Origin: Phycisphaeraceae bacterium
GTDB lineage: Bacteria > Planctomycetota > Phycisphaerae > Phycisphaerales > Phycisphaeraceae
DNA length: 64,000 nucleotides
NCBI GenBank assembly: GCA_963674705.1
Contig: OY771506.1
Location: 5,120,001-5,184,000 of the forward strand
Reading direction: 5' to 3'
In this document: piece after piece, positions 8,801 to 63,870 of the stretch
How the letters are laid out: each line of letters begins with the position of its first letter
Position numbering within the stretch: position 1 is the first letter of the stretch
Program-made: the position numbers and the translations under genes
Notes under the pieces: generated by a model
What the model was told of the DNA's origin: nothing
Seen by the model: the letters and a program-made list of their open reading frames with translations, nothing else
Database searches by the model: none

Positions 8801-10647
8801 ACGGCGTTGCTTCATCACTGACGATTCAGAACGGCGGCAGCTTCACGGCTTCAAACAGCAACATGCTCGTTGCCGACCAGGCGGGGTCGACCGGCAGCCT
8901 GGTTGTGGATGGTGAAGGATCGACGCTGACCGTCGGCCGAATGCTGATGGGCGACAACGGCTCGGGCACCGCGACGATCAGCAACGGCGGGGACCTTATC
9001 ATCACTGCGCCGGGTTCGCAGATCGGCAACCTGGAGGTTTCTGCTTTCGGTGGCGGTAATGGAACCATGACGGTTACCGATCCGGGGTCCACGGTCAGCG
9101 TCGGCGACTGGCTATCGGTTGGTGATGAAGGCACGGCCAACGGCACACTCAATATTGAAAACGGCGCGACGGTCTCAAGCAACGGTCACTCATATATCGC
9201 ACGCCAGGGTTATCTCACAAGCACCGGTGTGATTACCGTGCAGGACCTGGATACCAACGACGGCTCCTCGGGATCTACATTAAACGTCGGCGCGAATCTT
9301 TACCTGAGTGGCAATGCCAGTGGCGGCGGCGGCGACGCGACGCTCAACGTCAACGCGGGCGGCACCGTGAATGTCACCGGGCAACTCAAACTCTGGGACG
9401 ATGGCAAGGTCAACCTCAACGGCGGCACGATCAATGCTGGCTCGCTCGACTTGTTCGATCCGCTCGAAGCGCCTTTACCGGTGTTCACCTTTAACAGCGG
9501 TACGTTCCGCTTCACCGCGGGCGCGACGCTCAACAGTGAAACGCTGCGTGATCTGCTTGGCGGCGTGGGGACACCGGTTGTCAGTACAGGCCGCAATCTT
9601 GTCGTCACCGATCAGGCGGTGCTAAGCGCCCCGGTTCGGTTGAGCGGCGGGACGCTTAGCGTTGGCTCGGTCTTTAACAACGACACATCCAACCTTGACT
9701 TCGATGCTGGCACATTCAACCTGACCAGCAGCAACCTTGAGGTCACCAGCGGTGGGTTGTTCGGCAGCGTTTTAAGTGTTACGCCCAACCAGGCAATCAA
9801 CATCACCAACCTCGCGCAAGTGAATGCCGACGGCACACTCGTTGTGCAGGGCGGTTTCAGTTCAGGCGGGTTGACCAACCTCGGCACGACCGTCCTGATC
9901 GACACAACAATTGGTGGTCCCGTTAATAACCCAAGCGGCAGCGCCATCGATATCGTCGGCGAGGTGATCTTTACCGGCCTTTATTCGGGTGGCGGCGACA
10001 TCTTCGGATCAGGCACGGCTGACTTTCAAGGCGGCATCAGCCCCGGCGACAGCCCCGCCATCGTTTCGATCGAAGGTTCCATTAATCTCGATGCCGCGAA
10101 CACACTCTTCATCGAACTGGGGGGAACGACGCCGGGTGAATATGACCGGCTCGAACTCGGTGGCTTTGCATCTATTGATGGCACGCTTGATGTCGCACTT
10201 ATCAACGGTTTTGTCCCCTCAGTCGGCGACAGCTTCGGCTTCCTCTTTGCTAATGGCGGATTCGGCGGCAGCTTTGCGACGCTCAGCCTGCCTGATCTTT
10301 CAAGTATGGGACTCGATTGGCAACTCAATCCCGGCGGGTCGACGGTCTTCCTTGAAGTCGTTGCAGCGCTGCAAGGTGACTTGAATGGCGACGGCTTCGT
10401 CGGGCTGGATGATCTTGACATCGTGCTGGGCAACTGGAATCAGAGTGTCCCGCCGGCCAATCCACTTGCCGATCCATCGGGCGATGGTTTTGTCGGACTG
10501 GATGACCTGGACATTGTGCTGACTAACTGGAACAACGGTACGCCGCCGAGCGGCGTTGCTGTAACCGTTGTCCCAGAACCAGCCGGCCTGGTGGTGATCA
10601 GTGCGTTATCCATGCTCTGTCTAGCAAAATACCGGTCTCGCAGGTAA
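5842..10647 (+). CDS. Large PEP-CTERM surface protein with T5SS/PEP-CTERM-associated-like beta repeats and paired dockerin-like module
   Basis: About 1600 aa, signal peptide, many Gly/Thr/Asn-rich VGxxGxGxLxIxNGGxV repeats, GDLNGDGFVGLDDLD twice, VPEP plus TM plus basic tail (KYRSRR). Confidence 0.9.
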   Translation: MSIYSPTKISGSLLAAMGVTIGITPQLWAQSLTEIDQETLFISQTQATAEPELGTQVGGVVGDLTFTTPAGSSLSFTEFTSLIPTTPDLAISGVENLNIALAAPVFSLGFQFVDPTDAPDSTFDITLYSGGAGGTFVNSFNFESPKDVLHFGGFVSDTAFDYVEIREIGGDSGNEYFGQFYTGTTAGEFWTAGTSGNWDTGANWTGSTAPLSTDNVFITDSATMTITGPASARTVNSLTIDNQDLTNSGGTGTTTLNLSTGALTVTNGFVVGSTATDSGISIVNVGAGTLNVGGDTTIRDGGTLNVGTGTFNPTGAVNLEGGTLSVNSIGSLTPNWTSGTLEVTGAGGLAVNLNGSLGGNPIDISTGKTLNVTNLLQVNSAVIFDVDGGSVNAGNITAFLGTFNANIGQVNVDNTFTNFGTVNLAGADVTVNTFDASAVTPNFTDGSLTIDGGAYIPFAGSPDFTLESATGNPTLTLDNGATLGVTGTIDVALNANTDATLNINNGSSLTSGAVDMGGISFTSDAIANVDGAGSSWDISGTLEIGHGNTTTQAANTGRDVLTVSNGAELNVDGAVTLYTTGRINIDDGDVTVKGWDRLAASQFGWYGGTLTIDTGNFNSGTSNFTLGHADRNVLNMINGATHTGTNVDITNGEWHVLSGSGVNLTGSASLQLYNNGAGSPALMEIDGAGSSVTVNGILDVGTTTGGDATLHITNGGSLTINSSASIAESDTTVGIVNVDGTGSSLNVNAGFFVGNEGAATLNITNGASVNVNELTVADSDTNGINTGVSVVTINGTDGVTPSTLNVTGSSYIGGSTNENGGVGVLNVQAGALYASNGGIIGSGDGGGADGTGTVNITGADSFWNSVANGNSDIYVGDDGAGALNVNTGGRVDADAMFIGRLAGSEAAQMSVDGNDSVVNVRGAFVVGNQRPGALEITNNATLNTSTLTNAEFLIGNSTASDNSSVLVDNASIVHNGTGRVAVGDDSNGVASSLTIQNGGSFTASNSNMLVADQAGSTGSLVVDGEGSTLTVGRMLMGDNGSGTATISNGGDLIITAPGSQIGNLEVSAFGGGNGTMTVTDPGSTVSVGDWLSVGDEGTANGTLNIENGATVSSNGHSYIARQGYLTSTGVITVQDLDTNDGSSGSTLNVGANLYLSGNASGGGGDATLNVNAGGTVNVTGQLKLWDDGKVNLNGGTINAGSLDLFDPLEAPLPVFTFNSGTFRFTAGATLNSETLRDLLGGVGTPVVSTGRNLVVTDQAVLSAPVRLSGGTLSVGSVFNNDTSNLDFDAGTFNLTSSNLEVTSGGLFGSVLSVTPNQAINITNLAQVNADGTLVVQGGFSSGGLTNLGTTVLIDTTIGGPVNNPSGSAIDIVGEVIFTGLYSGGGDIFGSGTADFQGGISPGDSPAIVSIEGSINLDAANTLFIELGGTTPGEYDRLELGGFASIDGTLDVALINGFVPSVGDSFGFLFANGGFGGSFATLSLPDLSSMGLDWQLNPGGSTVFLEVVAALQGDLNGDGFVGLDDLDIVLGNWNQSVPPANPLADPSGDGFVGLDDLDIVLTNWNNGTPPSGVAVTVVPEPAGLVVISALSMLCLAKYRSRR

Positions 10648-10851
10648 CCCACATTCGGTTCAATATGCGATAAACGCCGGGGCCCGCAGGCATTTGCTGG
10701 GCGGCGAGGATGTTTCTATGGACTGGTCCTGGGTCGAGAGTTATAATTAGTCCTTGTTGGCGGGCGGGTTAACTATTCGCACTTTGTTTGGTTTTTCAGG
10801 GTTTCACTTCAATAAGACAGTCTGGTGTGTCCGTAAACGGAGATACATCAA

Positions 10852-13572
10852 ATGTCACCAATTCGCTCCCAACCGTTCACGCGGATCGGCTGTGCCATAC
10901 TTGCCTTGACAGTAGCCAACAGCGTATCTGCTCAAAGTGCATACTTCTCATGTCAAGGCGTACTGAACGCGCCCGGTGATAAGCACGATTTGTACTTCGA
11001 CCTGTCACGTGAGGTCGGCAGTTCAGAGAACCTGGCTTTCCTGACATTCACCTACGCGGGAGGTATCAACGCTGCGGGTGATGCTATACCCACCAGCGGT
11101 TTTGATGCTGCGCTAGGGTTATATGACTGTTTTAACGCGCTGCGTGGGCGGGATGATTCTTCCGGGCCGGGCCTGGACTGCTTGCTCTCCTGGGCGAGTG
11201 TTCAACCCGAGGGCATTCCGCTGAATCCCGATCCGTTGCCGGTTGATCATTATCGCCTGAACATCAAACAGTACAACGACCTGCACACCGGGCCTTGGGC
11301 AGTGGATCTGATCGGTCCGGCCGACGCGATCAAATTAACCGGTGCGATCCCCATCGAGACCAGTACGCTGGACTCGCTGAAGTTCGGCACGACCGGGAGC
11401 GGCGATACATCCGCGTTAGTAGAGTTTCATACCGAAACAAATGTGACCGGAGAGTTGTGCGTCGCAAACACAGGCAAAGGCAGTCTAACCGTGGGGACAA
11501 GTGGGATGTTATATGCCGGTGAACTCGAGATCGGCAAACAGATCGGTTCGATCGGATCGATGACGGTCAATTCCGCCAACTGTTACATCAGTACTTACAC
11601 AACGATCGGGGATCAGGGCCAAGGCACACTAAATATCCAGGATTACGGCGCCGTCAATTCCATGAGCCAGACAACGGTCGGGTTGAACAGCAACGCGGTG
11701 GGCGTCGTGAATGTGTCGGGCTGGCATGCGATATGGGACATCGATGACAGCCTCTACCTGGGCTACCTCGGTCAAGGCACGCTTAATATTAATAGCGGCG
11801 GCGAGGTGTTAACAGAGAACGGCTTCGTCGGGCTCGTTAATGCCGGGCATCTCAACGTCTGTGGCGAAGATAGCGCTTTGCACAGCACGGGCTCGCTGGT
11901 CGTGGGTTATTTTGACGGTGACAGCACGATGCGGATTGAAAACGGTGGGTTTGTATCCAATGACCATGCGTATCTCGCGTATGAACCCGACGCCTCCGGT
12001 ATCGTTACAGTGACCGGCGAAGACTCACACTGGTTTTGTGGTAACGATCTAAATATCGGCGGCGGTGGCAGCACAGCGGGCGGTGATGGCGAGTTGATTC
12101 TTCAGGACTTCGGGCTGGTATCGGTTGTAGGTTCGCTTCGTTTGTGGCCGAACGGAACGGTGAACCTCGATGGTGGAAGACTGAGACTGTATGAGTCGAT
12201 CGACGACCGGGGCGGGCAGTTTATCTACAGCCGAGGCGCCATCGAGACATACGACCCCGATCTTACACTTTATGTCGATCCTGCTGGTCTGCGGCTAGGG
12301 AATAAGACTATCAGCACATCCACGCTATTGACATATGACCATGACCTGAACCTTTCAGGCAAGATCGTGGTGAATTCAGGGGCGGTGCTCGAATCGACCG
12401 GCGGTTTTGTTATCACGAATGGTTTGACTGTAGCGACCGGCGCGGCCGTGCATGTGTCCGGGGGATTCATGCAGGCCAACAAGCTGACCATGGCGACCGG
12501 TTCGTCGTTGTCGTGTGTGAGCGATCTGTTATATGTCCCGGGACCGGTTCAATTGGCGATCGGTTCGGAACTGGATTTCACGGGCGGAGCTATGACGCTT
12601 GGGCATCCTTCGGCGGTCAACGGTGTGGTCATCGCAGGCACCGTGCGTATTCATAGCGGTACATTGCAGCTCTACGACGCCAATGATACCGTCCTGGACA
12701 GCGGCGCGTGGATCACGCTGGGTGAATCCGGCACACCCGCCACGATCGAGGCGGGCAATGGCTTGACCCTTGACTTCGGCGGCAACATCACCGGCTACGG
12801 CAGCATCGACACGCCCGATGATCCTTCCCGGCCGACCACTATCAACGGCCACATCACTGGTAACAGTGTGCTACAGCCCATCACACTCAACGGCTACATC
12901 AAGGGCGTCGGTACACTTGATAATGTCGTCATCACCGGGACGGATGCGCCTGGGTTCAGCACCACGACTGTATACCGAGGCAGTGTCGAATATGCCGGCA
13001 CACTCCTGATTGAAGTCGGTGGCACCACCATCGGTAGTTATGACCGTATCGAGCATTCGGGCATAGCAACGTTGGGTGGCACGCTCGAAGTGCAACTGAT
13101 CAACGGCTACACACCTGCTTTGGGCGATTCCATTGGTTTTCTGTTCGCCAACGGTGGTTACGGCGGATCATTCACTGACACACTCTTGCCTGATCTCTCC
13201 GGAATGGGGCTGGGTTGGCTACTCAATCCCGGCGGATCGACGGTCTTCCTTGAGGTCATCGCAGCCTTAGAAGGTGACTTGAATGGAGACGGCTTTGTCG
13301 GCTTGGATGATCTTGACATCGTGTTGATCAATTGGAATCAGAACGTCCCGCCGGCCGATACGCGTGCTGATCCAAGCGGCGATGGTTACGTCGGGCTGGA
13401 CGATCTGGATATCGTGCTTGGCAACTGGAATGCGGGTACACCGCCGTGTGTACAAACCCTCGCCCCGTTTCCGGAGCCATATGTAGTTGTGCTGTGGCTT
13501 ATTGGTGTTTGTTGTCTGCCTTGCAGGCGTTATCACGCAACCAACAAACAAATCCTGATCGCGAAAGTGTAA
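10852..13572 (+). CDS. PEP-CTERM surface protein: DVUA0089-like N-domain, beta repeats, paired dockerin-like module
   Basis: Signal peptide, TFTYAGGINAAGDAIPTSGFDAAL motif, GxGTLNI repeats, dockerin pair, FPEP plus TM plus RR. Confidence 0.88.
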   Translation: MSPIRSQPFTRIGCAILALTVANSVSAQSAYFSCQGVLNAPGDKHDLYFDLSREVGSSENLAFLTFTYAGGINAAGDAIPTSGFDAALGLYDCFNALRGRDDSSGPGLDCLLSWASVQPEGIPLNPDPLPVDHYRLNIKQYNDLHTGPWAVDLIGPADAIKLTGAIPIETSTLDSLKFGTTGSGDTSALVEFHTETNVTGELCVANTGKGSLTVGTSGMLYAGELEIGKQIGSIGSMTVNSANCYISTYTTIGDQGQGTLNIQDYGAVNSMSQTTVGLNSNAVGVVNVSGWHAIWDIDDSLYLGYLGQGTLNINSGGEVLTENGFVGLVNAGHLNVCGEDSALHSTGSLVVGYFDGDSTMRIENGGFVSNDHAYLAYEPDASGIVTVTGEDSHWFCGNDLNIGGGGSTAGGDGELILQDFGLVSVVGSLRLWPNGTVNLDGGRLRLYESIDDRGGQFIYSRGAIETYDPDLTLYVDPAGLRLGNKTISTSTLLTYDHDLNLSGKIVVNSGAVLESTGGFVITNGLTVATGAAVHVSGGFMQANKLTMATGSSLSCVSDLLYVPGPVQLAIGSELDFTGGAMTLGHPSAVNGVVIAGTVRIHSGTLQLYDANDTVLDSGAWITLGESGTPATIEAGNGLTLDFGGNITGYGSIDTPDDPSRPTTINGHITGNSVLQPITLNGYIKGVGTLDNVVITGTDAPGFSTTTVYRGSVEYAGTLLIEVGGTTIGSYDRIEHSGIATLGGTLEVQLINGYTPALGDSIGFLFANGGYGGSFTDTLLPDLSGMGLGWLLNPGGSTVFLEVIAALEGDLNGDGFVGLDDLDIVLINWNQNVPPADTRADPSGDGYVGLDDLDIVLGNWNAGTPPCVQTLAPFPEPYVVVLWLIGVCCLPCRRYHATNKQILIAKV

Positions 13573-13630: not shown

Positions 13631-16312
13631 ATGAAACACATCCCGAGGAAGAGATGTTGTATGGCGCAAGCTTTTTTAGTCACATTCTTCTGTTCAACGA
13701 TGTCCCATGCCACGACATATACCTGGGACAATACTACCGGGAACAATTCTTTCCAGACATCTCTCAACTGGTTACCGACAGGCGTGCCCGGGACGGGCGA
13801 CACGGCGTGGTTTAACACCAATCTGGCCGATGACGCCGTCGATGTGGCTGATGGCACGGCTATCGACGCGATGCAAGTGAACAACTCAGCGATCGTTGAC
13901 CTGACCATCGGAGACGGCACGACCGCCAGCCGGTTCGATCTGGATCAGGCTGCCGGTGACTCGCTTATCATCGGCTCTTATCCGGTCGACACGGCGGAAC
14001 TCAACCTCAAAGGCGGGTGGCTGGACACCTACAGGACAAGGCTCGGTGGCCGTGCCATCTTCAATGTTGTCGGATCGTCTGTATGGGATTCGACATCGGT
14101 CTTGATCAATGGCGAAACCGTTTCCGACACGGCCGGTATTGGCGTCGGCCAGTCAGCCCAGGTTTACAGCAGCGGTTATAACGTCGACGTAGGCAGCAGT
14201 ACGGGCAGCGGACGAGTCGCAGTGGACGGCACACCGGAATTTTTTTTAGGGCCCGCTGCCAGATGGGGTGGTATCGGCACGCTCGATATCGGTCCAGACG
14301 TGATCAGCGGTTTTAACTTCGGCTGGGTCCGGTTATATCACGGTGGGCAGATGAGCGCAATTGACGCCGGTATCCACGGCACGACCGATGTGTCAAGCTA
14401 CATCCTGGTCGAGTCTGGCGGCAATCTGGAAGTCGTCAATGAACTTAACATCGGGCCCTATAGCCGACTCGATCTGGATGACACATACAGCCGTGTTTCG
14501 GTCGGTGTATTTACCAAAAGCGGCGGCATGTTTGACTGGACGGGCGGAACGTTGGAGATCACCGGGGAGGCTGTCACCATCGACAATCTCAATGGCCACA
14601 GTGTGATCGGCAGCAATCTGAACATTGGTACAAGTAAAGTGCTTAATCTGACATATGTCGATGGTTCCGGCCAGACGATGCTGGTGGGTAACCAGGGCAG
14701 CGGCGTTGTGACGATTGAAAACGGCGGCCAGTTGACGCAGGCCGGTCGCGCGACTCTCGGCTGGCAAGGTTCAGGCAACGGAACCGTGACGGTGCAAGGC
14801 ACGGGTTCGCACTGGCAAGTGAACGATATCCGCCTGAGCCAACTCGGTCCCAGCAGCGGGACATTGAATATTCTCGATGGAGGTCGAGTCACGACGGTCG
14901 CCGATGTGTTATTGGCCGGATTCGATGCCACGGCATACGGCGAGGTGTTTATGATGGGTGAAGATTCATTATTTGAAGTGGGTGGTAATCTTTCGATCGG
15001 CGGTCAGGCGTATGTTGCCGGCGGCACCGGTGAAGTCTACGTCGGTGATGGTAGCCGGATCGAGGTGGCGAAGACGCTGAAAGTCTGGGGCGACGGTACT
15101 TTTTTGATATGCGGCTCGGGTTCCGTGGTTGCGGACCGGATCGAGCTGGCGCCGGGCGCCGTGTTCGGCTTTCTTACACCCTTACCAGACGTGCACACAA
15201 ACCGACTGATCGGCTTCGGGGACAATGTCAATTTTGACGGGGCCCTATTTCTGGGTCACTCCGCTGGAGCCAGCGACGCCAGCCACAGCGTCGGGGCGGG
15301 GCAGACATTCATGATGCCGGACAATTGGCTGTACGTTGGCGAGGACAAGCCCGCAACCTTTACGATTGAAAACGGCGGATATGTGAAAAGCCTCGGCGGC
15401 GCTATTGGTAAGGAACCAGGCACGAACGGCAGCACCGTTACGGTCAGGGGCTCATGGCGCACCATATATGGCATCGAGGTGGGACAATACCCACAGGGTG
15501 GCGACAGCGCTACGCTCCTGATTGAAAACCAGGGATTCGTGTACACTTCTGGGATAGCCAACATCTGGCCGGATTCGAACATCACCCTGGATAATGCAAC
15601 TCTGAAAGCTACGGTTGTCGATGTGGAAGGAGGCGTCTTGCAGGGCACAGGAAGTGTGATACTTGAAGGTGTCATCGGCAACGAACTGAACAATGAAGGC
15701 GACGTGATCCCGGGCCTATCGATTGGGAAAATCGACGTATCAGGTATATATAACCAGCTACCCGCTGGCGCATTACATATCGAGATCGGTGGTGGAGGAG
15801 GCGTGCCGGGGAACGATTATGATCAGTTGAATATCACTGGGCCGGCCAACTTGGCGGGCAGATTGTTGTTGTCATCGTTCGGTCCCTACATCCCCGCGGA
15901 AGACACGACGTTCCGAGTGCTGGCTACGACATCAGGTGTGTCCGGTCACTTTGATCATGTGAGCTTCCCATACCTCGGGATCATGGGTCTTGGTTTGGAT
16001 TACTCAGATCCGAACGGTGTCTGGGTCCACGCCAATCTGAGTGGCGATCTCAATGGTGACGGATTCGTTGGGCTGGACGATCTGGATATTGTGCTAACCC
16101 GATGGAATATGGTTGCAGTAGCAGGTGTCTGGGGTCAGGGTGATCCGAGCGGCGACGGCTTCGTCGGCCTGGCCGACCTCGACATTATCCTGACCAACTG
16201 GAACAACGGCACACCACCGAGCGGCGCTACGGCCACCATCCCTGAACCAACAGCCATGGGCGTATTCGTCAGCGGGCTGGCTTTATTTATCACCCAGCGA
16301 AGAAGTCGCTGA
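13631..16312 (+). CDS. PEP-CTERM surface protein with beta repeats and paired dockerin-like module
   Basis: AAGGAG RBS, signal peptide, TYTW..NWLPTGVPG start, dockerin pair, IPEP plus TM plus RRSR. Confidence 0.9.
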   Translation: MKHIPRKRCCMAQAFLVTFFCSTMSHATTYTWDNTTGNNSFQTSLNWLPTGVPGTGDTAWFNTNLADDAVDVADGTAIDAMQVNNSAIVDLTIGDGTTASRFDLDQAAGDSLIIGSYPVDTAELNLKGGWLDTYRTRLGGRAIFNVVGSSVWDSTSVLINGETVSDTAGIGVGQSAQVYSSGYNVDVGSSTGSGRVAVDGTPEFFLGPAARWGGIGTLDIGPDVISGFNFGWVRLYHGGQMSAIDAGIHGTTDVSSYILVESGGNLEVVNELNIGPYSRLDLDDTYSRVSVGVFTKSGGMFDWTGGTLEITGEAVTIDNLNGHSVIGSNLNIGTSKVLNLTYVDGSGQTMLVGNQGSGVVTIENGGQLTQAGRATLGWQGSGNGTVTVQGTGSHWQVNDIRLSQLGPSSGTLNILDGGRVTTVADVLLAGFDATAYGEVFMMGEDSLFEVGGNLSIGGQAYVAGGTGEVYVGDGSRIEVAKTLKVWGDGTFLICGSGSVVADRIELAPGAVFGFLTPLPDVHTNRLIGFGDNVNFDGALFLGHSAGASDASHSVGAGQTFMMPDNWLYVGEDKPATFTIENGGYVKSLGGAIGKEPGTNGSTVTVRGSWRTIYGIEVGQYPQGGDSATLLIENQGFVYTSGIANIWPDSNITLDNATLKATVVDVEGGVLQGTGSVILEGVIGNELNNEGDVIPGLSIGKIDVSGIYNQLPAGALHIEIGGGGGVPGNDYDQLNITGPANLAGRLLLSSFGPYIPAEDTTFRVLATTSGVSGHFDHVSFPYLGIMGLGLDYSDPNGVWVHANLSGDLNGDGFVGLDDLDIVLTRWNMVAVAGVWGQGDPSGDGFVGLADLDIILTNWNNGTPPSGATATIPEPTAMGVFVSGLALFITQRRSR

Positions 16313-16622
16313 TATCTGCAACATAAGTCATTTTATTCTTGTTATATACCTCCCCCCCGTCTAAACTGGCGGTTTGGTTTCGTTGTTATTGAATAATCGT
16401 ATGGGCGGCGGCTGACGGAGGATCAGCGAGAGGGCCTGCGATGAGGGGTGGTAACACGTCGCCGGACGGGGAGTGGTTTGGTTCACAAACCTCGATATTT
16501 GGCTACACACCGCGTTGATCGGTGCGGGCTGTCGCTGCGCAACATATCTGTTCGACACGCAGACTTCAAATCGAATCTTCTTATTAGAACACTTCACTGT
16601 TCAGTCACCAAGGAGCTTAATC

Positions 16623-19600
16623 ATGTTGCGGTTACACACACAATCGACCAGCGTGACATGTGTAGTGATGATTGTCTCGCTTATGATGATGGTCGTTTCC
16701 AGACCGGCGGCTACCCATGCGCAAACTGCGTACTTCTCACTTGAAGGCGACATCGTCGCGGTTAGTGATGAGATCAACTTCGGCGTGGACCTGACGCGCA
16801 GTGTCGGCAGCAGCGAGAACCTCTTGTTCCTCACGTATACCTATGCGGGGGGCACAAACTATGCGGGTGATACGATCACGGCCAGCAGTTTCGATTCGGA
16901 CCTGCACTTCTATGACGGGCTAAGCGTATTGCACGGCCAGGACGATCAATCGGGACCAGGTTTTGATGCGCTGCTTTCCTGGACGGTCGGAGACACGCCG
17001 TTGAATCCCGATCCGCTGCTGGCGGGTAATTACCGATTGAACCTACAGGAATACATGAATAACAATACGGGACCGTGGGCGGTGGACATGGTCGGCCCTG
17101 CTGATGCGATGACCTTCACGGGGGCGACGGGCTTATTTTCCGGCACGATCGATTCCTTGAAGTTCGGCACGACCGGCGGCGGCACCGCGGTGTACAACCA
17201 TGGCAGCACGGTCAACCTGCTCGGTGATCTGGTCGTCGCGGCGACGGGTAACGCCGAATTGAATGTCGATGCAGGCACACTGACAGTCCATGGGCAAACC
17301 ACGATCAACAGCGGCGGCACGATTGATATTGACGGCGGCACGCTCTCCGCGGTTGGTCCGGTGTTGGTCGACGGCGGGACGTTTACATACAACAGCGGGT
17401 ACTTTTATCTGGCTTCGAGCGGTACATTCAGTGCGGTCAATGATGCCACGGTTGATTTCAGCGGTTCGTTAAATATCAATAGCAATAAGACCTACCGAGT
17501 CAGCTCCGGTTCGGACATAACATTTGGGGGTTATGTCGATGTGGGTGGGAACAGTGATGGCGTGCTGATTGTCGAGGGTGCTGGCACAACGTACGAAAAC
17601 GGCAACAGCTCGTGCTTCTGGGGGTACGGCGGGGGAACTGCGCAGGTGTTCATCACGACCGATGCGCAGGCCAACATCGATGGACTTAACCTGCGTATCG
17701 GATACGGCACCACCGCGAACAGCACGGGGCTGGTCAGTATCGAGAGCGGCGCGGGGATGACGGTGAGTAGTAATATTTATCTTGCGTCTGACGGCTCTGT
17801 CGGCGGCATGGGCGCCATTAATGTCATGGGCACCGACTCAACGTTTGAGCAAACAGGCGTCCGTAATCTGACTATCGGTCATGCGAGCGATGGTGTTGGA
17901 AGGCTTTCTGTTGAGTATTCCGGTTCCTTTACTTCGGGCAGCGGTACGATCACGGTCAATCCAACCGGGTTGATCGAAGTTAAGTCGGGCGGATCATTCC
18001 TTGCTAATGGTGATATCGTCGTCGATGGCGGAACGATATATATAACCAACAGCAGTTTCGCGCTGGCTGCGGGCAAATCATTGACGGCATCCAACAACGG
18101 CCAGGTCCACCTCAGCAACAGTTACAACATAGCTAACGGGAACACTTTCACTATCGATTCCGGTGCGGACTTGGAGGGAGGCAGCTACATCGATGTGGGT
18201 ACCGGCACAGATGGCACGCTGATAATCGACGGGCCCGGTTCAACGATCAGCACGAATGACGTCAGTTACTACGGCTCGAACGGCGCGACGGGGCAAGTTA
18301 CGCTCAGGAATGAAGCCACGGCGTACTACAACAACGCCATCCGAGTGACACAAGGGCTCAACCCCGGCACAAACGGCGTGCTCAACGTCGAAAGCGGCGC
18401 CGATGCGTATATGTACGGGACGCTGGCTATCTGTACCGGTGGAACGCCGGGTGGTAGTGGCACAGTTACCTTGACGGGCGCGGGGTCAACCATCGTACAG
18501 AGTGGTGATGTGGAATTGATCGTTGGACATGCAACTGACGGTACGGGCCTGCTGACGATCACGGATAATGGCAGTTTCACAACCGGCACAGACTCCACCG
18601 TCATCAGGACGACCGGCACGATCGAACTCAGTAATGGCGGCAAACTCTACACCAACGGCAACATCCTCGTAGACGGCGGGACGCTGAACCGCAATACGGG
18701 CGGCCTGCTCATCATGGATGCGGGTACAACCTTGTATGCCTACAACAACGGCCAGGTCAATATCACCGGTTCACATAACATCATGGATGATTGTACGTTC
18801 GAGATTAACTCCGGTGCGGACCTGGCGAGCACGAGTTACATCGACATCGGTAACGGATCGAACGGGACGCTGATCGTCGACGGCGTCGGCTCGACACTCA
18901 CGGTTAACGGACAATCGTATTGGGGATCGAATGGCGGAACGGCCACGGTCACACTGAGCAACAACGCTTATGTCGAGTTAGTCAAGCTCCAACTGGCTCA
19001 GGGTTCAACGGCCGGCACAACCGGGAGCCTCCGTATTGAAAGTGGCGCGGATGCTTTTATTCAAGGTGAGATCAGTCTGGCTGTAGGCGCACCCAGCGGC
19101 GGTAGCGCAACATTGCACATCAGCGGACCCGGCTCCACCCTGACACAAACGATGGACTACGATCTTGACATCGGCAGCACCACTTCCGGCTCTGCCTCGG
19201 TGACCATCGACAATAGCGGAAGCTATACACAAGACACCGGGTCGATTTTTATCCACGGCACCGGTACGGTCAATATCAGTAACGGCGGATCGTTTAGTAC
19301 CGGTGGTACGGTCGACCTCCGCGGCGGAACACTCAACCTCGATGACGGTGAGATCACTACCGGCAGCTTCATTCAATCAAGTGGGACATTCAACTTTAAC
19401 GATGGCAAGCTTACGATCGATGGCGGAACGTTCGATCCCGGTACCACGTATTACCGGATTTATGGCCCAACCGTGTCAGAAGTGCCTACACTTGTTTTCG
19501 ACAACGGCGCATCCGCTCCAGTGATAACCGGGTCGATGCATGTCGGCCACATTAATCGTGGGGCAATGCAAATACTGAATGGGTCCACTCTCAGTTCAAC

Positions 19601-20831
19601 AACCGCGTACATCGGCTATGATTCCACATCAAAAGGATCGGTTATTGTTGACGGTAGCGGGTCAACCTGGAACATTACCGATACAGACCTTCGTGTTGGT
19701 CAGAGTGGTTATGGAGAACTGATCGTCAGTGATCATGCTGTGATAAATGTTGCTGACGACTTTGGTGTAGGTTGTGCCATGGGCGGCACAGGTTATCTGC
19801 ACCTCACTTCAAGAGCCACGATCAACGTTGCCACGCGAACCTTTATTTCAGACTTCGGTAATGGTGAAGCAACGATTGATGGTGGTGCGACATTGACCTC
19901 GCAAGGCGGCGTGTGGATCTCAAACCTGGCCGGCACGTCCGGAACCTTGCATGTTCGTGAAACAGGAACGTTACTGGATGCAAAGACCGACTTACATGTG
20001 GGCGGTAATCCCAGTGGCTCAGAGGGTATTGGTATCGTAGACCTGAGTGATAACGCCCGGATCAGTGTCGGCGCGAAGCTTCACATCTGGGATCAGGGCA
20101 GTGTCAACTTCTCCGGCGGAACTCTCAGTGCAGACATCATCAGCGACATCGACGGCGGTACATTCAAGTTCACCGGTGGTGTGTTGCACGTGAATACCTA
20201 CGAAGGCCACCTGATCAACAACGGCGGAACAGTAGCGCCGGGTCATTCGGTGGGCCTGACATCGGTCACAAAAGATTACTCGCAGTTTGGCGGCATACTA
20301 GAAATCGAACTTGCCAATACGCCCGGTTCCGGTGGGATCGACTACGATCTGCTGGATGTCGTTGGTGATCTTGAGTTGGCAGGAACGCTTGATATCCTGC
20401 TAACAGGCGGGTTCATGCCTGTCATCGGCAACAGCTTCGATGTGATTACTTTTCACAACAGTCGATACGGTGTATTTGATCAGGTGCTTCTGCCAAAGAC
20501 ACCCGGAGTGGGCCTGGACCTTGTCTACATGTCCAAGTCCGTCCGTATCGTGACACGACTGGCAGGAGACCTCAACGGCGACGGCTTCGTCGGTCTGGAC
20601 GATCTGGACATTGTGTTGACACACTGGAATCAGAATGTGGATGCGGACGTCTGGCTGGGCGGCGACGCGACCGGTGATGGGTATGTCGGCCTGGACGACC
20701 TGGATGTCGTCCTGAACAACTGGAACGCGGGCACGCCGCCGGCTATCGACAAACAGGCAGCAATTCCTGAACCATCAACAGGTTTAATTCTTTGGGGAAT
20801 TATTATCGTGGGTTCGGTCATGAGAAAATAG
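16623..20831 (+). CDS. PEP-CTERM surface protein: DVUA0089-like N-domain, three ~217-aa repeats, paired dockerin-like module
   Basis: ATG 16623 preceded by AAGGAG. TYTYAGGTNYAGDTITASSFDS motif, dockerin pair, IPEP plus TM plus RK. Confidence 0.9.
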   Translation: MLRLHTQSTSVTCVVMIVSLMMMVVSRPAATHAQTAYFSLEGDIVAVSDEINFGVDLTRSVGSSENLLFLTYTYAGGTNYAGDTITASSFDSDLHFYDGLSVLHGQDDQSGPGFDALLSWTVGDTPLNPDPLLAGNYRLNLQEYMNNNTGPWAVDMVGPADAMTFTGATGLFSGTIDSLKFGTTGGGTAVYNHGSTVNLLGDLVVAATGNAELNVDAGTLTVHGQTTINSGGTIDIDGGTLSAVGPVLVDGGTFTYNSGYFYLASSGTFSAVNDATVDFSGSLNINSNKTYRVSSGSDITFGGYVDVGGNSDGVLIVEGAGTTYENGNSSCFWGYGGGTAQVFITTDAQANIDGLNLRIGYGTTANSTGLVSIESGAGMTVSSNIYLASDGSVGGMGAINVMGTDSTFEQTGVRNLTIGHASDGVGRLSVEYSGSFTSGSGTITVNPTGLIEVKSGGSFLANGDIVVDGGTIYITNSSFALAAGKSLTASNNGQVHLSNSYNIANGNTFTIDSGADLEGGSYIDVGTGTDGTLIIDGPGSTISTNDVSYYGSNGATGQVTLRNEATAYYNNAIRVTQGLNPGTNGVLNVESGADAYMYGTLAICTGGTPGGSGTVTLTGAGSTIVQSGDVELIVGHATDGTGLLTITDNGSFTTGTDSTVIRTTGTIELSNGGKLYTNGNILVDGGTLNRNTGGLLIMDAGTTLYAYNNGQVNITGSHNIMDDCTFEINSGADLASTSYIDIGNGSNGTLIVDGVGSTLTVNGQSYWGSNGGTATVTLSNNAYVELVKLQLAQGSTAGTTGSLRIESGADAFIQGEISLAVGAPSGGSATLHISGPGSTLTQTMDYDLDIGSTTSGSASVTIDNSGSYTQDTGSIFIHGTGTVNISNGGSFSTGGTVDLRGGTLNLDDGEITTGSFIQSSGTFNFNDGKLTIDGGTFDPGTTYYRIYGPTVSEVPTLVFDNGASAPVITGSMHVGHINRGAMQILNGSTLSSTTAYIGYDSTSKGSVIVDGSGSTWNITDTDLRVGQSGYGELIVSDHAVINVADDFGVGCAMGGTGYLHLTSRATINVATRTFISDFGNGEATIDGGATLTSQGGVWISNLAGTSGTLHVRETGTLLDAKTDLHVGGNPSGSEGIGIVDLSDNARISVGAKLHIWDQGSVNFSGGTLSADIISDIDGGTFKFTGGVLHVNTYEGHLINNGGTVAPGHSVGLTSVTKDYSQFGGILEIELANTPGSGGIDYDLLDVVGDLELAGTLDILLTGGFMPVIGNSFDVITFHNSRYGVFDQVLLPKTPGVGLDLVYMSKSVRIVTRLAGDLNGDGFVGLDDLDIVLTHWNQNVDADVWLGGDATGDGYVGLDDLDVVLNNWNAGTPPAIDKQAAIPEPSTGLILWGIIIVGSVMRK

Positions 20832-29584: not shown

Positions 29585-29983
29585 CGTATTGTCTCTCCCT
29601 GCTTGAGTAATAACTCGGACTGTGATCCATGAGATTGAATCGTTGATGTGATCGTGGCAAAGGATTCGGGCACAGAAACAATCCCAGCTCACACTGATAT
29701 TGTGTAAGTGCTAGTTACCAGAAGGCATTGCGCCAGACAGGCAAAAGTTGTATGTGCCCAGACATGTCACCCCCCTTTTGCTGAAGTATTCAGGCAAACC
29801 CCCGCCCAACAAATGTTTACCCCTCATCCACCGAGAGCTTTGGGAAACCACTCCCCAAGGATATGACTCGCGGTTATCACGCAGTATTATAATATTTTAC
29901 AGTCTTTTGTATAGGCATTTATACCTAGTCTTTATCATGATGGGCGGTCGCTGGCTCAGGATTGGAGGCAAATCATCTGCAAG

Positions 29984-42443: not shown

Positions 42444-43973
42444 ATGCCGTGTAGATGCCTGCTGTGGTTGATTGTTCTTATCATTGCAGCGCCCGCCACA
42501 AACTACGCCCAATCCCCGCCGGACCCGGACTACGTGCGCGGCACGGTTTACGCGAGTTACGCCGACTTCAAGATCGACCTCAACAACATCGCCGCTATGC
42601 CCGCAGGCGCCGCGCGCGAAACGGCTTTCGATGACTTTTTCAATACCCTCGAAGCCGTCGGCCAGGTGCCCTACGCACAAGGCAACCAGGTCGCTTTCCT
42701 CTATAGAAGTTCAAGCGCCTCCAGCGTTTCGTTCCCGGGCGATCACACCGGCTGGAGCGCATCATCGTCATCCGCCGTCGCAACAGAACTCGGCGACACC
42801 GGCGTGTGGATTAAAGAACTCACTTACCCAACCGATGCACGCCTCGACTACAAGATCGTCACCAACGGCAGCAACTGGATACTCGATCCAAAGAACCCGC
42901 TTCAACAATGGGGCGGCTTCGGGCCCAACAACGAACTTCGCATGCCGGATTATGTCTTTGCCCAGGAAACCGTCCGTCACACGGGTGTCCCGATGGGCAC
43001 GCTCACCTCCAACATCCGCACCACCAGCACGAACCTCGGCTACGACGTCAACTACCGTGTCTATACCCCCGCGGGCTACGACACAAACAGCCTGCACAAC
43101 CTGCCCGTGGTCTACATCACCGACGGCCACGAGTTCGCTGCCGACTACCTCGGTTCGGTCACAGTCACGCTCGATAACATCATCGACTCGGGCGAACTGC
43201 AACCCACGATCGCGGTGTTCATCGATCCGCGCGATCCGGATACGGGTACAAACCGTCGAGCCAGCGAATACACCGGCAACCTTGACTTCGCCAACTTCGT
43301 CGCCGATGAACTGGTCGCCGAGGTGGACGCCGCGTACCGCACGAATCCGACGCCGACCGGCCGCACGATCCTCGGCACGTCCTACGGCGGTGTGAATTCG
43401 GCCTACTTCGGCCTCACCCAGTACGACACATTCGAAAACATCGCTCCACTCTCGCCATCGAACTTCCCCAGCATTTACAACAACTACATCTCCGCCGGAC
43501 TGCAGGACGAACTGGACTTCTACCTGACCTATGGCACGATCGGTGACGGCAGCGGCGGCCCTAACCTCTACAACATCCTTTCATCCAACGGCTACAACGT
43601 CACACGCAAAACGGCCAATGAAGGACATTCCTGGGGAAACTGGCGCGCCCAGATCAAAGACATCCTCACCGGCCTGATCGGCGCACCACTACCCGGCGAC
43701 CTCAACTTCGACGGCTTCGTCGGCCTGGACGACCTGGACCTCATTCTCAGCAATTGGAATCAAACCGTCACCCCGGGCGACACCTTCATAGGCGACCCAT
43801 CCGGTGACGGCTTCGTCGGCCTTGACGATCTGGATATCGTTCTGAACAACTGGAACGCCGGCACGCCACCCATTAACGATGCACAATCAGTACCCGAATC
43901 CACGACCCTATTACTCATCCTGCCTTTCACATTCAGACTAATCTACCGTCCCCAAAAGCCGCTTGCGGCTTAG
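42444..43973 (+). CDS. Secreted Fes/IroD-like alpha/beta hydrolase with paired dockerin-like module and PEP-CTERM-like tail
   Basis: Signal peptide, RLDYKIV..WILDPKNP, VYTPAGY, GTSYGG nucleophile elbow, EGHSWGNW, dockerin pair, VPES plus hydrophobic tail. Confidence 0.9.
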   Translation: MPCRCLLWLIVLIIAAPATNYAQSPPDPDYVRGTVYASYADFKIDLNNIAAMPAGAARETAFDDFFNTLEAVGQVPYAQGNQVAFLYRSSSASSVSFPGDHTGWSASSSSAVATELGDTGVWIKELTYPTDARLDYKIVTNGSNWILDPKNPLQQWGGFGPNNELRMPDYVFAQETVRHTGVPMGTLTSNIRTTSTNLGYDVNYRVYTPAGYDTNSLHNLPVVYITDGHEFAADYLGSVTVTLDNIIDSGELQPTIAVFIDPRDPDTGTNRRASEYTGNLDFANFVADELVAEVDAAYRTNPTPTGRTILGTSYGGVNSAYFGLTQYDTFENIAPLSPSNFPSIYNNYISAGLQDELDFYLTYGTIGDGSGGPNLYNILSSNGYNVTRKTANEGHSWGNWRAQIKDILTGLIGAPLPGDLNFDGFVGLDDLDLILSNWNQTVTPGDTFIGDPSGDGFVGLDDLDIVLNNWNAGTPPINDAQSVPESTTLLLILPFTFRLIYRPQKPLAA

Positions 43974-46803: not shown

Positions 46804-46805
46804 CC

Positions 46806-53893: not shown

Positions 53894-53926
53894 AAATAAG
53901 ATTTGTTCTTGGGTATAACTGATTCA

Positions 53927-59992: not shown

Positions 59993-60248
59993 CACGCCCC
60001 ACACTTCCAATTCAATCAACTCACCACAGATTACCTGGATTGACATAAATGCAAGGCACAAGCGGGCATAGGTTCTACCCTCGGAAGCAAGAACCGCTTT
60101 TAAACGCTGTAAATGCCGTTTTAATAGGATTTTGCCTTGACTTCCAGGGGCCTGACGCCTTACTGTGTATACGCATGGGCGTTCTGCGCCCATTCCCTGA
60201 AGTGACCGGCCCCGGCATCCAGCAGGGCGCCAACATGGATACAACCCA

Positions 60249-61976
60249 ATGAAGAAGTACTCCCTCCGCGAGAGTTTTTGCGTGGTATTGGTGATGGCTC
60301 TGCTCTGCTGCGCCGCCGGTGCCGCCAAAGCACAAACCATCCAGGGCGATCTCGACGGCGACGGCTTCGTCGGCGCGCTCGATATCCAGATCATCCTAAA
60401 CAACTGGAACCAACTGGTCCCCGTCGGCGACCTGTCTCACGGCGATCTACTCCCCGACGGCTACGTCGACCTCAGCGACCTCACCTTCCTGCTGCTGAAC
60501 TGGGGCCAAGGCACCATCCCAACACCCGGCGGCGACGCCTCGCTCGGTATCAACCTTAACGAACTCACCTACTACACACGCGAACTCGCCTTCGTCGACG
60601 CGGTCAAAAGCGCCAGGCCATGGGTCTCAACCAATCCCAGCGGCCAACCCTTTGATACCGGCCAAACCGTCAACACCGACGCCAACGGCTGGCCCATCCT
60701 CCAATCCGGCCAGGCCGCGCAAACCCTGATGCTCGTCGATAAGCCCGGCGCTTACCCCACCGGCACCTACACCGTCACTTTCGACGGCGACGGCGAACTC
60801 GACTTCGAGTTCGACGCCTCCAACGTACAACTCGTCAGCACGGGAAGGATGACCTTCCAGGTCAATAGCGCCTCCTCCAGCGGGATCCTCATGCGGATCA
60901 GTCGCTCCAATCCCAGTGATCACGTCCGCAACATCAAGGTCTGGATGCCCGGCTACGAGGGCGCGACTTCATCCTTCCACGACCTGTTCATCCAACGCCT
61001 TCAGCCCTTCGGTGTTATCCGCTTCATGGACTGGCAGCACACCAACGGCTCGAAGCTCGTTAGCTGGTCCGACCGCACCGAGCCCGATGACTTCAGCATG
61101 GATACAACCAACGGCGTCGCGCTCGAATACATGATCGAACTCTGCAACGAACTGGGCGCTGATGCCTGGTTCTGCATGCCCCACCAGGCCGACGACAACT
61201 TCGTCACCCAGTTCGCCACCATGGTCCGGGACAACCTCGATCCGGAGTTGAAGGTCTACATCGAATGGTCCAACGAAGTCTGGAACTCGCAGTTCTCCCA
61301 GAGCAAGTGGGTCAACCAGCAATCCGGCTCCAACATCTTCTCCGACGCCTGGTTCCAGACCATGGCCGGGCATGTAGCAAACGACTTCGGGATCTGGCAG
61401 AACGTCTTCGCCGGGCAAACGGACCGCCTTTTCCGTGTCGCCGCAGGCCAGCAGGCCAACGTCTGGGTCACGCGACGGCTTACACAGGAACTGGATAACC
61501 TCGGCAGCCCGTATGACGCGATCTCCTGTGCCGCCTACTTCGACCACTGGAACGCTAAATTCGACGCCAGCACCACTGTTCAGGACATCCTCGACAACGC
61601 CATCAACCACACCATCCCCGACATCTACACCGGCTTCTACCAGGACCACGGCGACCTCTCGCAGGAACTGACCAACCGCCTGGGGCGTAATATCCCGCTG
61701 CTGGCTTACGAAGGCGGGCAGCACTACACCGTCCACGGCAACTCGGCCGCGCCGTACTACCAGGCGTTCAAGGATGTGCAGGAAGCCGACGGGATGTACG
61801 ACGCCTACACGGCGAACATGGAGGCCTTCGACCAAGCCGGCGGGTCTCTTTTCATGGCCTATAACTACATCCGCAAGCAGGATCAGTACGGCTCGTGGGG
61901 CCACCTTCAGTACCAGAACCAGGACCCCAACACGTCGCCCAAATACCGGGCATTACTGGACTTCAATAGCGAATAA
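60249..61976 (+). CDS. Secreted protein: N-terminal paired dockerin-like module plus putative clan GH-A-like glycoside hydrolase domain, paralog 1
   Basis: Signal peptide, GDLDGDGFVGALD / GDLLPDGYVDLSD, LGINL, RFMDW, YIEWSNEVWN, AYEGGQH, WGHL. No PEP-CTERM tail. Confidence 0.8.
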   Translation: MKKYSLRESFCVVLVMALLCCAAGAAKAQTIQGDLDGDGFVGALDIQIILNNWNQLVPVGDLSHGDLLPDGYVDLSDLTFLLLNWGQGTIPTPGGDASLGINLNELTYYTRELAFVDAVKSARPWVSTNPSGQPFDTGQTVNTDANGWPILQSGQAAQTLMLVDKPGAYPTGTYTVTFDGDGELDFEFDASNVQLVSTGRMTFQVNSASSSGILMRISRSNPSDHVRNIKVWMPGYEGATSSFHDLFIQRLQPFGVIRFMDWQHTNGSKLVSWSDRTEPDDFSMDTTNGVALEYMIELCNELGADAWFCMPHQADDNFVTQFATMVRDNLDPELKVYIEWSNEVWNSQFSQSKWVNQQSGSNIFSDAWFQTMAGHVANDFGIWQNVFAGQTDRLFRVAAGQQANVWVTRRLTQELDNLGSPYDAISCAAYFDHWNAKFDASTTVQDILDNAINHTIPDIYTGFYQDHGDLSQELTNRLGRNIPLLAYEGGQHYTVHGNSAAPYYQAFKDVQEADGMYDAYTANMEAFDQAGGSLFMAYNYIRKQDQYGSWGHLQYQNQDPNTSPKYRALLDFNSE

Positions 61977-62044
61977 GCAATTTTTAACAAAACTTCTGTA
62001 CAATACTCACTCCCGGGCGGATGATATCGGCTTGTGAAAAAATC

Positions 62045-62072
62045 TTGACAAGGCAGTTACGAGCGGTAAGTT
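62045..62072 (+). promoter_or_regulatory. Candidate sigma70-type promoter
   Basis: TTGACA-N16-TAAGTT upstream of the 62149 gene. Confidence 0.35.
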
Positions 62073-62148
62073 CAATAGCTTGCAAGGATGCATAGACGGC
62101 TACTGTCTCAAGTGCCTGCTATGTGTTTTTCCAGATTGAGGGCGAGAG

Positions 62149-63870
62149 ATGTTAAAGAATAATCTGATTCTTGCGTTGTGTCTTTTGTCGTGCGTAGCCG
62201 TGATCGGGCCATGCTACGCGCAGGTGAATGACACGGTCGCGCCGATCACCGGCGATCTGGATGGTGACAGCTTCGTCGGACTTAGCGACCTTGGCATCAT
62301 TATCGAGCACTGGAACCAAAAGGTCACGCCCGGCGACCTGCTCTTGGGTGATCCTTCAGGCGATGGCGAGGTCGGCCTCGCTGACATCGACATCCTCGTC
62401 AACAACTGGAACCTCGGCTACCCCATCCCCGCTGAGCGCAACCTCAATCTCGGTATCAACCTCTCACAACTCAACTACTACAGCCGTGAATGGGTCTTCG
62501 TCGACGCCGTCAAGCAAGCCCGGGAATGGGTGATGACCACGCCCACCGGCAACCCGTTCGACACCGGCGAAACCGTCATCACCGATCGCAACGGCTGGCC
62601 GTTATTGCAGGAAGGCCAGGCCGCGCAAACGATCATGTTCAACGGGATGGAAGGCGCTTACCCCGCCGGACAGTACGTCTGCACCTATGAAGGCACGGGC
62701 GAGATCATCCTGACATGGGACGCCGACGTCGCTTCTAAGGAGACCGGCCGCATAGTTGCCAATGTCACGCCCAGCGACAACGGCATCCTCATGCGCATCG
62801 CTTCCTCCGACTCTGCCGATCCCATCCGCAACATCAAGCTATGGATGCCGGGCTTCGAAGATGCGCAGTCTTCCTTCCACCCGCTCTTCCTGCAAAGGCT
62901 CGCCAAGTTCAAAGTCCTGCGCTTTATGGACTGGCAACACACCAACGAAGTCGACGACACCGTGTCATGGTCAAACCGTTCACGGCCCGTCTACTACACG
63001 CAAGGCACGCTCCGCGGCGTCTCGATCGAACAGATGATTGAACTGTGTAACGAACTACATGCCGATCCTTGGTTCTGCATGCCGCACACCGCCAGCGACG
63101 CCTACATCGCCAACTTCTCCGCGCTCGTGCAGGAGCTGCTGGACCCCGATCGCAAGATATATATTGAGTGGTCCAACGAGGTCTGGAACTCTCGCTTTGA
63201 TGTCCACCAGTATGTCAAGACGCAATCGGGTGGATCGAGCTTTTCAGATGAATGGTTCGACTTCTGGGCCGACCGCGTCTCCAACACGTTCACGATCTGG
63301 GAAAACACGTTCTACGGCGAAGAGGACCGGCTCGTGCGCGTCGCCGCAGGCCAGGAAGCAAACGTCTGGGTCACCCAGAACCTTGCCAACCGATTGAACG
63401 GCCAACTCGATGCGATTGCCTGCGCCGCCTACTTCGGCGAAGACGGCGCCGACTTCGACGAAAGCACGACCGCCGAGCAGATCCTGCTCGACGCGATCAA
63501 CCGAGCGATCCCGCAGAAGTCCGCCGTCTTCTACCAGAAGCACGGCGACCTGGCCGGAAAACTCTCCAATGAGTTAGGCCGAACCATCCGCTTCATCGGT
63601 TACGAGGGCGGCCAGCACTACGCCGACGACAACCGACACGTGCCCTACGAGCAGGCGCTGCTGGATATGCAATACCTGCCCAGGATGTTCAGCGCGTATC
63701 TGCAAAACCTCGACGCCTTCGAGCAGGCCGGCGCCGACCTCGTCTGCCCCTTCAACTACGTCGACCGCCCCGGCAACCACGGCGCCTGGGGACACCTCGA
63801 GGTGCAGGACGCCTCACTCGATACCTCCGAAAAGTTCCACGCCTTGATGTACTACATCAAAGATCAGTAA
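62149..63870 (+). CDS. Secreted protein: N-terminal paired dockerin-like module plus putative clan GH-A-like glycoside hydrolase domain, paralog 2
   Basis: Signal peptide, GDLDGDSFVGLSD / GDPSGDGEVGLAD, RFMDW, YIEWSNEVWN, GYEGGQH, WGHL; homologous to the upstream gene along its length. Confidence 0.8.
   Translation: MLKNNLILALCLLSCVAVIGPCYAQVNDTVAPITGDLDGDSFVGLSDLGIIIEHWNQKVTPGDLLLGDPSGDGEVGLADIDILVNNWNLGYPIPAERNLNLGINLSQLNYYSREWVFVDAVKQAREWVMTTPTGNPFDTGETVITDRNGWPLLQEGQAAQTIMFNGMEGAYPAGQYVCTYEGTGEIILTWDADVASKETGRIVANVTPSDNGILMRIASSDSADPIRNIKLWMPGFEDAQSSFHPLFLQRLAKFKVLRFMDWQHTNEVDDTVSWSNRSRPVYYTQGTLRGVSIEQMIELCNELHADPWFCMPHTASDAYIANFSALVQELLDPDRKIYIEWSNEVWNSRFDVHQYVKTQSGGSSFSDEWFDFWADRVSNTFTIWENTFYGEEDRLVRVAAGQEANVWVTQNLANRLNGQLDAIACAAYFGEDGADFDESTTAEQILLDAINRAIPQKSAVFYQKHGDLAGKLSNELGRTIRFIGYEGGQHYADDNRHVPYEQALLDMQYLPRMFSAYLQNLDAFEQAGADLVCPFNYVDRPGNHGAWGHLEVQDASLDTSEKFHALMYYIKDQ

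Follow-up and report, generated by a model that had tools for sequence, protein, structure and literature searches.

What does a dockerin-like module do on secreted proteins that also end in a PEP-CTERM-type tail? This question is raised by a window of 64,000 nucleotides (nt) from a Phycisphaeraceae genome (assembly GCA_963674705.1, contig OY771506.1, positions 5,120,001-5,184,000; the host genome is labelled G000), for which an earlier reading, the original prediction, had described one duplicated module on eight different secreted proteins. All eight modules are present, six of them preceding a PEP-CTERM-type tail and two standing N-terminal on tail-less proteins. The module, hereafter the tag, is likely a genus-wide docking tag of predicted calcium-binding dockerin fold, by which some 220 exported proteins would attach to a common partner at the surface. 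The candidate for this partner is most likely a family of unannotated domains, here called X, rather than the classical cohesins.

The window is a sample of a large system. A model (hidden Markov model, HMM) trained on the eight window modules was run genome-wide, as had been proposed, and found 222 tagged open reading frames (ORFs) in G000, 209 of which match nearly the full length of the model. Each ORF was read between stop codons and begun at its first Met, which makes the lengths approximate. As a chance control, reversed ORFs gave no HMM hits and shuffled ORFs no hits of the regular expression. The tagged proteins carry export leaders; 207 end in a PEP-CTERM-type tail, 11 have an LEPR leader or a GLWE end, and the remaining four comprise two window proteins, one protein that stops bluntly at the tag and another that combines a tail with a degenerate half tag. 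With a tail model trained on the genome and a threshold of 12 bits, 392 PEP-CTERM proteins were counted, 201 of them tagged, and shuffled protein ends yielded no tail at this threshold. The PEP motif, the hydrophobic helix and the basic end of such proteins are found genome-wide, with at least 150 proteins above the TIGR02595 cut-off (150 of 150 scored candidates). Exosortases are represented by three PF09721 matches (116-161 bits), one of them in a cluster that reads as polysaccharide-export-like. The statement that neither cohesin nor exosortase is visible thus holds for the window and fails for the genome, which has both.

The tagged share climbs with cargo length, from 29/113 below 250 aa through 50/107, 39/69 and 47/62 to 36/41 at 800 aa and above. 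Identical cargo families exist both tagged and untagged, so that the tag is dispensable for export. The original prediction had the tag mainly linking anchored proteins to free enzymes; this linkage is unsupported, since ordinary signal-peptide proteins without a tail make up only three of the 222 tagged ORFs, two of them in the window, and free tail-less enzymes are rare. Its assumption of an anchor already in place on PEP-CTERM proteins is likewise weak, because in the published model, as far as the accessible part of the source goes, the exosortase cleaves the tail (Haft et al. 2006, PMC1569441). Besides complete tags, nine proteins (e.g., G000:C1:448223-449221) carry a lone repeat with the same residues and its own linker before the tail, two (among them 5382131-5386287) have half tags flanking an inserted domain, and tandem arrays of at least three repeats exist. 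The flanking half tags recall the split dockerin helices described in the available text of 10.1101/2023.11.21.568195.

The tag comprises two 22-residue repeats, joined by a linker of 8-10 residues in 173 of 180 modules, a set drawn from 176 of the 222 tagged ORFs. The predicted model of the window copy at 43695-43856 (predicted local distance difference test, pLDDT, 97.3) features helices at residues 14-22 and 46-54. Predicted models were matched structurally by Foldseek and VIA. Foldseek returned the type II dockerin 2y3n_B as best match (TM 0.78, E 0.0026), and of 20 VIA matches the 15 highest-ranking are all dockerins, led by 2ozn_B of C. perfringens (Z 6.9, root-mean-square deviation (rmsd) 2.1, 54 residues aligned) and followed by 2y3n_D (Z 6.8, rmsd 1.5, 46 aligned). 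The two predicted loop-helix repeats and these matches uphold the description as a dockerin-like module. They lend no support to the label type I, the predicted model matching type II and C. perfringens dockerins at Z 6.8-6.9 and type I dockerins at 4.1-4.5. Calcium binding is predicted from the loops, in which positions 1, 5 and 12 are acidic; position 9 is Gly, and the second loop has Ser/Thr at position 3; the conserved helix is acidic and free of basic residues. Established profiles capture the tag poorly. None of the eight window proteins passes PF00404 (best 19.4 bits, curated cut-off 22.9 bits), and genome-wide 12 of the 93 matches listed pass on their own, with 150 candidates scored; three of the eight match NF041540 at 20-25 bits (best 25.1), all under its cut-off of 29 bits. 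Some public orthologues already carry dockerin names.

The uniformity of the tag had been ascribed to selection on the protein, and this is supported. Among the 28 pairs of window modules, the proportion of synonymous differences (pS) is 0.68 and that of nonsynonymous differences (pN) 0.18; across the 180 modules, pS amounts to 0.72 versus 0.81 under free codon choice, with a pN of 0.15. The residues L10, L13, D14, L17 and N21, which were left free in the search pattern, are 95-99% fixed in both repeats. The amino acids are nearly invariant in general, as claimed, with the exception of the module at 60345, which is a separate conserved variant. Gene conversion was considered as a source of this uniformity by comparing orthologues of G000 and its congener G004, for which 27 of 39 loci were usable (eight dropped below 80% identity, four without a hit). 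Tag pS is 0.265 and cargo pS 0.275 (Wilcoxon p 0.68); since tag and cargo diverge at the same synonymous rate, frequent conversion fails to explain the uniformity and is ruled out at this scale. Thus, with synonymous sites near saturation, pN low and no frequent conversion, selection keeps the tag uniform. Slow gene conversion may contribute; adjacent copies have a pS of 0.64, and nearest neighbours are 83% identical versus 80% expected.

Further evidence for recognition comes from the comparison of 11 genomes, i.e., G000 and ten congeners, all ten of which contain tag matches (68 to at least 150 each). Two tag residues are switched genome-wide between congeners, and the resulting dialects are mutually exclusive. 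The dialect DG[FY]VGLxDLD accounts for 351 half-sites in G000, 343 in G004 and 140 in G009, and for 0-1 in the other eight genomes, which instead feature 84-321 half-sites of the dialect DG[FY]VGIxDLN; the latter is absent from G000, G004 and G009. Reversed patterns gave no match. The three genomes of the L/D dialect may form one clade, in which case the change may have been a single switch. The switched positions 10 and 14 presumably belong to the partner-binding face, to judge from dockerin numbering. Such a genome-wide switch of two residues points to one shared partner, and one partner for all tags is the simplest reading. Half of the PEP-CTERM proteome carries the tag, whose role is very likely recognition. 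With the same residues fixed in both repeats across paralogues and switching together between species, the tag would present a two-fold symmetric recognition face to one partner class.

The proposed socket, domain X, is a 150-aa unannotated domain that was revealed by clustering the tag cargoes. G000 encodes 27 X domains in 23 ORFs, laid out in a scaffoldin-like manner, as arrays of single- or double-domain PEP-CTERM proteins, as a proline-linked triple behind an LEPR leader and fused before tags; each of the ten congeners has 17-28 copies. Among the best 150 public X representatives, 46 also bear a dockerin. The predicted model is a beta-sandwich (pLDDT 94.7) whose structural matches include cohesins at Z 5.4-6.7 and an rmsd of about 4, with 2vo8 at Z 6.7 and 2y3n_A and 1tyj at Z 6.5. 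The strongest link of X to the tag is a pairing of tail-less genes. The sole G000 protein that is blunt at the tag (C1:2086659-2089787) has a tail-less X gene (C1:2085919-2086644) directly behind it. In G008 and G010, the orthologue of this X gene again stands behind a tagged gene with a blunt end; the three cargoes are alike only in the tag, and the three neighbourhoods differ. In addition, cargo, tag and X are fused in one protein (P0012), and G016 has just one tag match and one X match, in neighbouring genes. A search of metagenomes for more tail-less X loci confirmed none. In P0017, P0137 and L098:3567-6686, a single ORF runs through tag and PEP-CTERM tail into a second leader and X; such ORFs resemble neighbouring genes that were fused or read through.

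Accordingly, a mechanism can be proposed in which the tagged proteins, equipped with export leaders and in 207 of 222 cases with a PEP-CTERM-type tail, would be handled by the three exosortases, the tail being cleaved as in the published model. The X domains, whether PEP-CTERM singles and doubles or the proline-linked triple, would then act as sockets retaining or clustering large cargo at the surface. This docking of the tag on X as a candidate cohesin-like socket is put forward tentatively, as possible rather than probable. The wider proposal, that the Phycisphaeraceae hold a Gram-negative, exosortase-coupled counterpart of the cellulosome, with a species-coded dockerin on X sockets missed by profiles and a code rewritten across hundreds of genes as the genus evolved, is somewhat unlikely as a whole.

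Several observations weigh against X as the socket. In structure it matches best with adhesin-type domains (Als9, Z 7.9, rmsd 3.2, 117 residues aligned), which rank above the cohesins, and no match reaches Z 8. No profile match connects X with the classical cohesins of G000 (probability 0.3%), none of 28 X members matches PF00963 at E 1, no PDB sequence match was obtained, and searches of Pfam and the ESM Atlas were uninformative, the Atlas giving only unnamed or low-scoring clusters. Median identity among X copies is 33% versus 77% among tag repeats, so that X fits poorly to one specificity, and no X column switches with the dialect group (34 versus 23 sequences). A tagged gene lies directly upstream of 2/17 untagged X genes versus 17/170 other untagged PEP-CTERM genes in G000; there is thus no general enrichment of X behind tagged genes, and the tail-less X orthologue was found in only two of ten congeners. 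Across 151 Phycisphaerae genomes, X was found in ten, all with dockerins, and dockerin-like modules in 125, many of them with high numbers; in G019, X is absent despite 123 tag matches. Codon adaptation of the X genes is not high, except for the first gene of one array. Furthermore, positions 10, 14, 17 and 21 are assumed to face the partner from dockerin numbering, not from the model. X may be the socket of one lineage only, an X-module-like neighbour or ordinary cargo.

Among the other explanations, the classical cohesins are the most familiar. The cohesin search that the original prediction called for was run and gave two PF00963 matches (44.5 and 39.1 bits), both in one giant ORF (Table 1). 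A six-cohesin profile and single-sequence searches found none outside the giant in G000, and none of the 108 candidates for short relatives of its second cohesin scored. A small PEP-CTERM cohesin gene directly behind tagged giants was likewise looked for and not seen, neither around 12 ORFs inspected nor behind the cohesin-bearing giant. If the tag bound the two cohesins of the giant, the system would be a planctosome-like cohesin-dockerin system of known type. Both matches exceed the cut-off, and a dockerin comes after each, in the second case the tag itself; the number of tags alone is no objection, since R. flavefaciens FD-1 has 222 dockerin proteins according to the accessible part of PMC2930009. 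Nevertheless, this reading is highly improbable. Pfam cohesins were found in only two of ten tag-rich congeners (three of 41 genomes overall), with the same result by the giant-cohesin profile, although most of the congener assemblies without a cohesin are fragmented and fragmented assemblies can lose giant genes; G009, which consists of two contigs, is 96% complete and has 114 tag matches, lacks cohesins by Pfam and profile. This distribution supports the earlier suggestion of a shared partner other than a classical scaffoldin. The giant's orthologue uses the dialect of its host genome, and between G000 and G007 its atypical dockerin shows a pN of 0.02 while the tag has switched dialect.

Another possibility is that one receptor, e.g., a chaperone or part of the export or sorting machinery of the outer membrane, reads the tag as a second sorting signal that brings large cargo across or onto this membrane after exosortase cleavage. 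A single receptor accounts best for hundreds of near-invariant half-sites and their complete switch between species, and it agrees with a tag that is common to PEP-CTERM and LEPR-leader proteins and commoner on larger cargo. Dockerin-rich genomes without X or a Pfam cohesin are common, and the PEP-CTERM tails, too, resemble each other more closely in one species than across species, according to the part of PMC1569441 at hand. Still, this explanation is unlikely, as no candidate receptor was found, cargo families with and without the tag indicate that export does not need it, and it offers no reason why tail-less tagged genes repeatedly stand next to X. Calcium-dependent self-binding of the tag, cross-linking surface proteins into a coat by species-specific self-recognition, would need no extra gene and would suit X-less genomes. 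The nine single-repeat proteins and the two with split halves speak for it insofar as a lone half needs another half to complete the fold, and tandem arrays of three or more repeats exist. However, half tags do not imply self-binding, since in R. flavefaciens two single-repeat dockerins together bind one cohesin, as given in the available text of PMC12270676; the nine single-repeat tags fit either mode alike. Together with the acidic conserved helix devoid of basic residues and a concerted switch of all copies that would be harder without an outside partner, this makes self-binding distinctly unlikely. Finally, the tag could be a calcium-stabilised spacer or a binder of a non-protein surface such as lipopolysaccharide, exopolysaccharide or mineral, with no protein partner. 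Its position between cargo and tail in most proteins and its frequency on long cargo would suit this explanation, as would the one exosortase in a cluster that reads as polysaccharide-export-like. A spacer would, however, fix L10, D14, L17 and N21 in both repeats as little as it would switch two residues genome-wide, and copies at the N-terminus or at a blunt C-terminus have no two parts to hold apart, which leaves this explanation quite improbable.

The window modules and their proteins are compiled in Table 1. Of the predicted starts, those at 10375, 13273, 16043, 20565, 43695, 60345 and 62251 are exact, and the start on the minus strand is 28996 instead of 28997; the modules were said to measure about 58 aa and span 53-58 aa. 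Three of the six window tails score above 12 bits; the other three, which follow the tags at 13273, 20565 and 43695, are short or degenerate. A whole-length search with the eight window proteins at E 0.01 gave no TIGR02595 match. The description of four cargoes as beta-repeat proteins is confirmed by TIGR04393 matches and that of the esterase by a PF00756 match. For the two proteins labelled glycoside hydrolase (GH)-like, the label is a reading of motifs, and the barrel (window 60249-63870) has no match in Pfam and PDB sequence searches. It has six paralogues in G000 and more than 2,000 public relatives, and both window barrel genes have orthologues in many relatives. A small untagged PEP-CTERM protein (35 bits with the tail model) is encoded at window 40001-40606, with a close paralogue at C1:143928-144563. 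The genes at window 53903-59992, which we take from their motifs to encode AddAB-like helicase/nuclease proteins, include two ORFs (53903-55921 and 55734-56774) that overlap in different frames and are possibly one frameshifted gene. Elsewhere in G000, among 22 listed ORFs of the LEPR-leader type, which are tagged or bear X, 11 terminate in an LGLWE-like motif (e.g., G000:C1 998883-1016117, 1322292-1326257 and 5108401-5110932). This C-terminal motif follows a low-complexity or FG-GAP-like region, is present in congeners too and is possibly a further sorting signal. Prepilin-like genes ('GFTLIELLVVISII') adjoin tagged and X genes in G000 and G016 (G000:C1:1177954-1184605; 4205787-4211251; L097:6746-9606).

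Table 1. Tags and tagged proteins of the window (window positions), and the cohesin-bearing giant located elsewhere in G000.
Feature	Position	Strand	Remarks
TIGR04393 beta-repeat secreted protein, 1602 aa, with tag and PEP-CTERM tail	5839..10647	+	family profile
Dockerin-like tag, two repeats	10375..10533	+	PEP-CTERM tail 10570-10644
Beta-repeat protein, 906 aa, with tag and degenerate PEP-CTERM tail	10852..13572	+	
Dockerin-like tag	13273..13431	+	tail 13468-13569
Beta-repeat protein, 893 aa, with tag and PEP-CTERM tail	13631..16312	+	
Dockerin-like tag	16043..16204	+	tail 16238-16309
Beta-repeat protein, up to 1452 aa, with tag and short PEP-CTERM tail	16473..20831	+	
Dockerin-like tag	20565..20726	+	tail 20763-20828
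Small acidic secreted protein with tag and PEP-CTERM tail	28733..29692	-	tail 28736-28798
Dockerin-like tag	28823..28996	-	second loop with 5-residue insertion
Esterase (PF00756), 509 aa, with tag and degenerate PEP-CTERM tail	42444..43973	+	tail 43890-43970
Dockerin-like tag	43695..43856	+	copy used for folding and structure matching
Tail-less secreted protein, 575 aa, N-terminal tag, GH-like barrel	60249..61976	+	no named family
Variant tag with own conserved residues	60345..60506	+	kept in about 27 orthologues
Tail-less paralogue, 573 aa, N-terminal tag	62149..63870	+	barrel 53% identical to 60249..61976
N-terminal tag	62251..62412	+	second repeat shows both dialects among orthologues
Giant protein, 5.7 kaa	L010:884-18070 = G000:C1:998883-1016117		C-terminal order cohesin - atypical dockerin - cohesin - tag

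The system bears on the fate of PEP-CTERM proteins after export and on the ligands of 'orphan' dockerins in cohesin-free genomes. As two natural dialects differ at two positions across hundreds of genes, the true partner should bind in a dialect-matched manner. The named X family and the natural tail-less tag/X gene pair reduce the binding question to two proteins. Should docking on X hold, it would add a family of dockerin sockets not described before, together with an orthogonal docking pair; should it not, the two dialects could still be used as bait and control in finding the real receptor.

Dockerins in Phycisphaerae are already known from the planctosome proposal (Andrei et al. 2019, PMC6461901), from NF041540 and from database names. 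In the literature search, outside of which most subscription papers lay, nothing was found that joins dockerins to PEP-CTERM, and the combination of cohesin and exosortase led to archaeal work only, as far as its accessible text goes. Dockerins are not mentioned in the available part of a class-wide Phycisphaerae genomics paper (PMC11266412), and the accessible portions of PMC6995999 and 10.64898/2026.06.07.730766 contain nothing on dockerin partners. The tag matches NF041540, the 'GC-type dockerin domain-anchored protein', and PF00404 weakly and below cut-offs (20-25 bits and 19 bits, respectively); in the former type the dockerin ends the protein, whereas here a PEP-CTERM tail follows the tag.

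Like the type II dockerin of Bacteroides cellulosolvens (2Y3N) and the non-cellulosomal NagH dockerin of C. perfringens (2OZN), the tag has two predicted loop-helix repeats and a short linker, and the best-scoring cohesin for domain X, 2VO8, stems from C. perfringens as well. Differences lie in an identity of only 22-28%, in the Gram-negative host, in the junction with a PEP-CTERM tail in about 200 proteins and in X, which is a candidate cohesin only. With the PEP-CTERM/exosortase system (TIGR02595, PF09721), as outlined in the part of PMC1569441 at hand, it shares the C-terminal tail, export leaders, exosortases (three here) and lineage-specific expansion. However, about 390 substrates compare with a maximum of 65 given there, and half of the PEP-CTERM proteins in G000 have a dockerin just before the tail, an arrangement for which the same portion of that source holds no mention. 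The cellulosome of R. flavefaciens FD-1 resembles the present system in its more than 200 dockerin proteins, mixed cargo and single-repeat dockerins, but has, according to the accessible text, six dockerin groups and proven scaffoldins, compared to one dominant tag and a candidate scaffoldin only in G000 (PMC2930009, PMC12270676). Ruminococcal cohesins often escape profiles and were found only by structure prediction, as stated in the available part of PMC11557425. Closest in taxonomy is the planctosome of Nemodlikiaceae, whose cohesin and dockerin modules, as described in the accessible part of PMC6461901, likewise belong to Phycisphaerae and to a proposed non-cellulose surface complex. In its model, recognised cohesins are borne by a lamin-tail anchor and an adaptor, and the cargo consists of peptidases; the present case has some 220 cargoes of mixed kind, PEP-CTERM tails and, in most congeners, no recognisable cohesins. 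New in comparison with these systems are the scale, dialects that are exclusive and genome-wide, and X as a candidate family.

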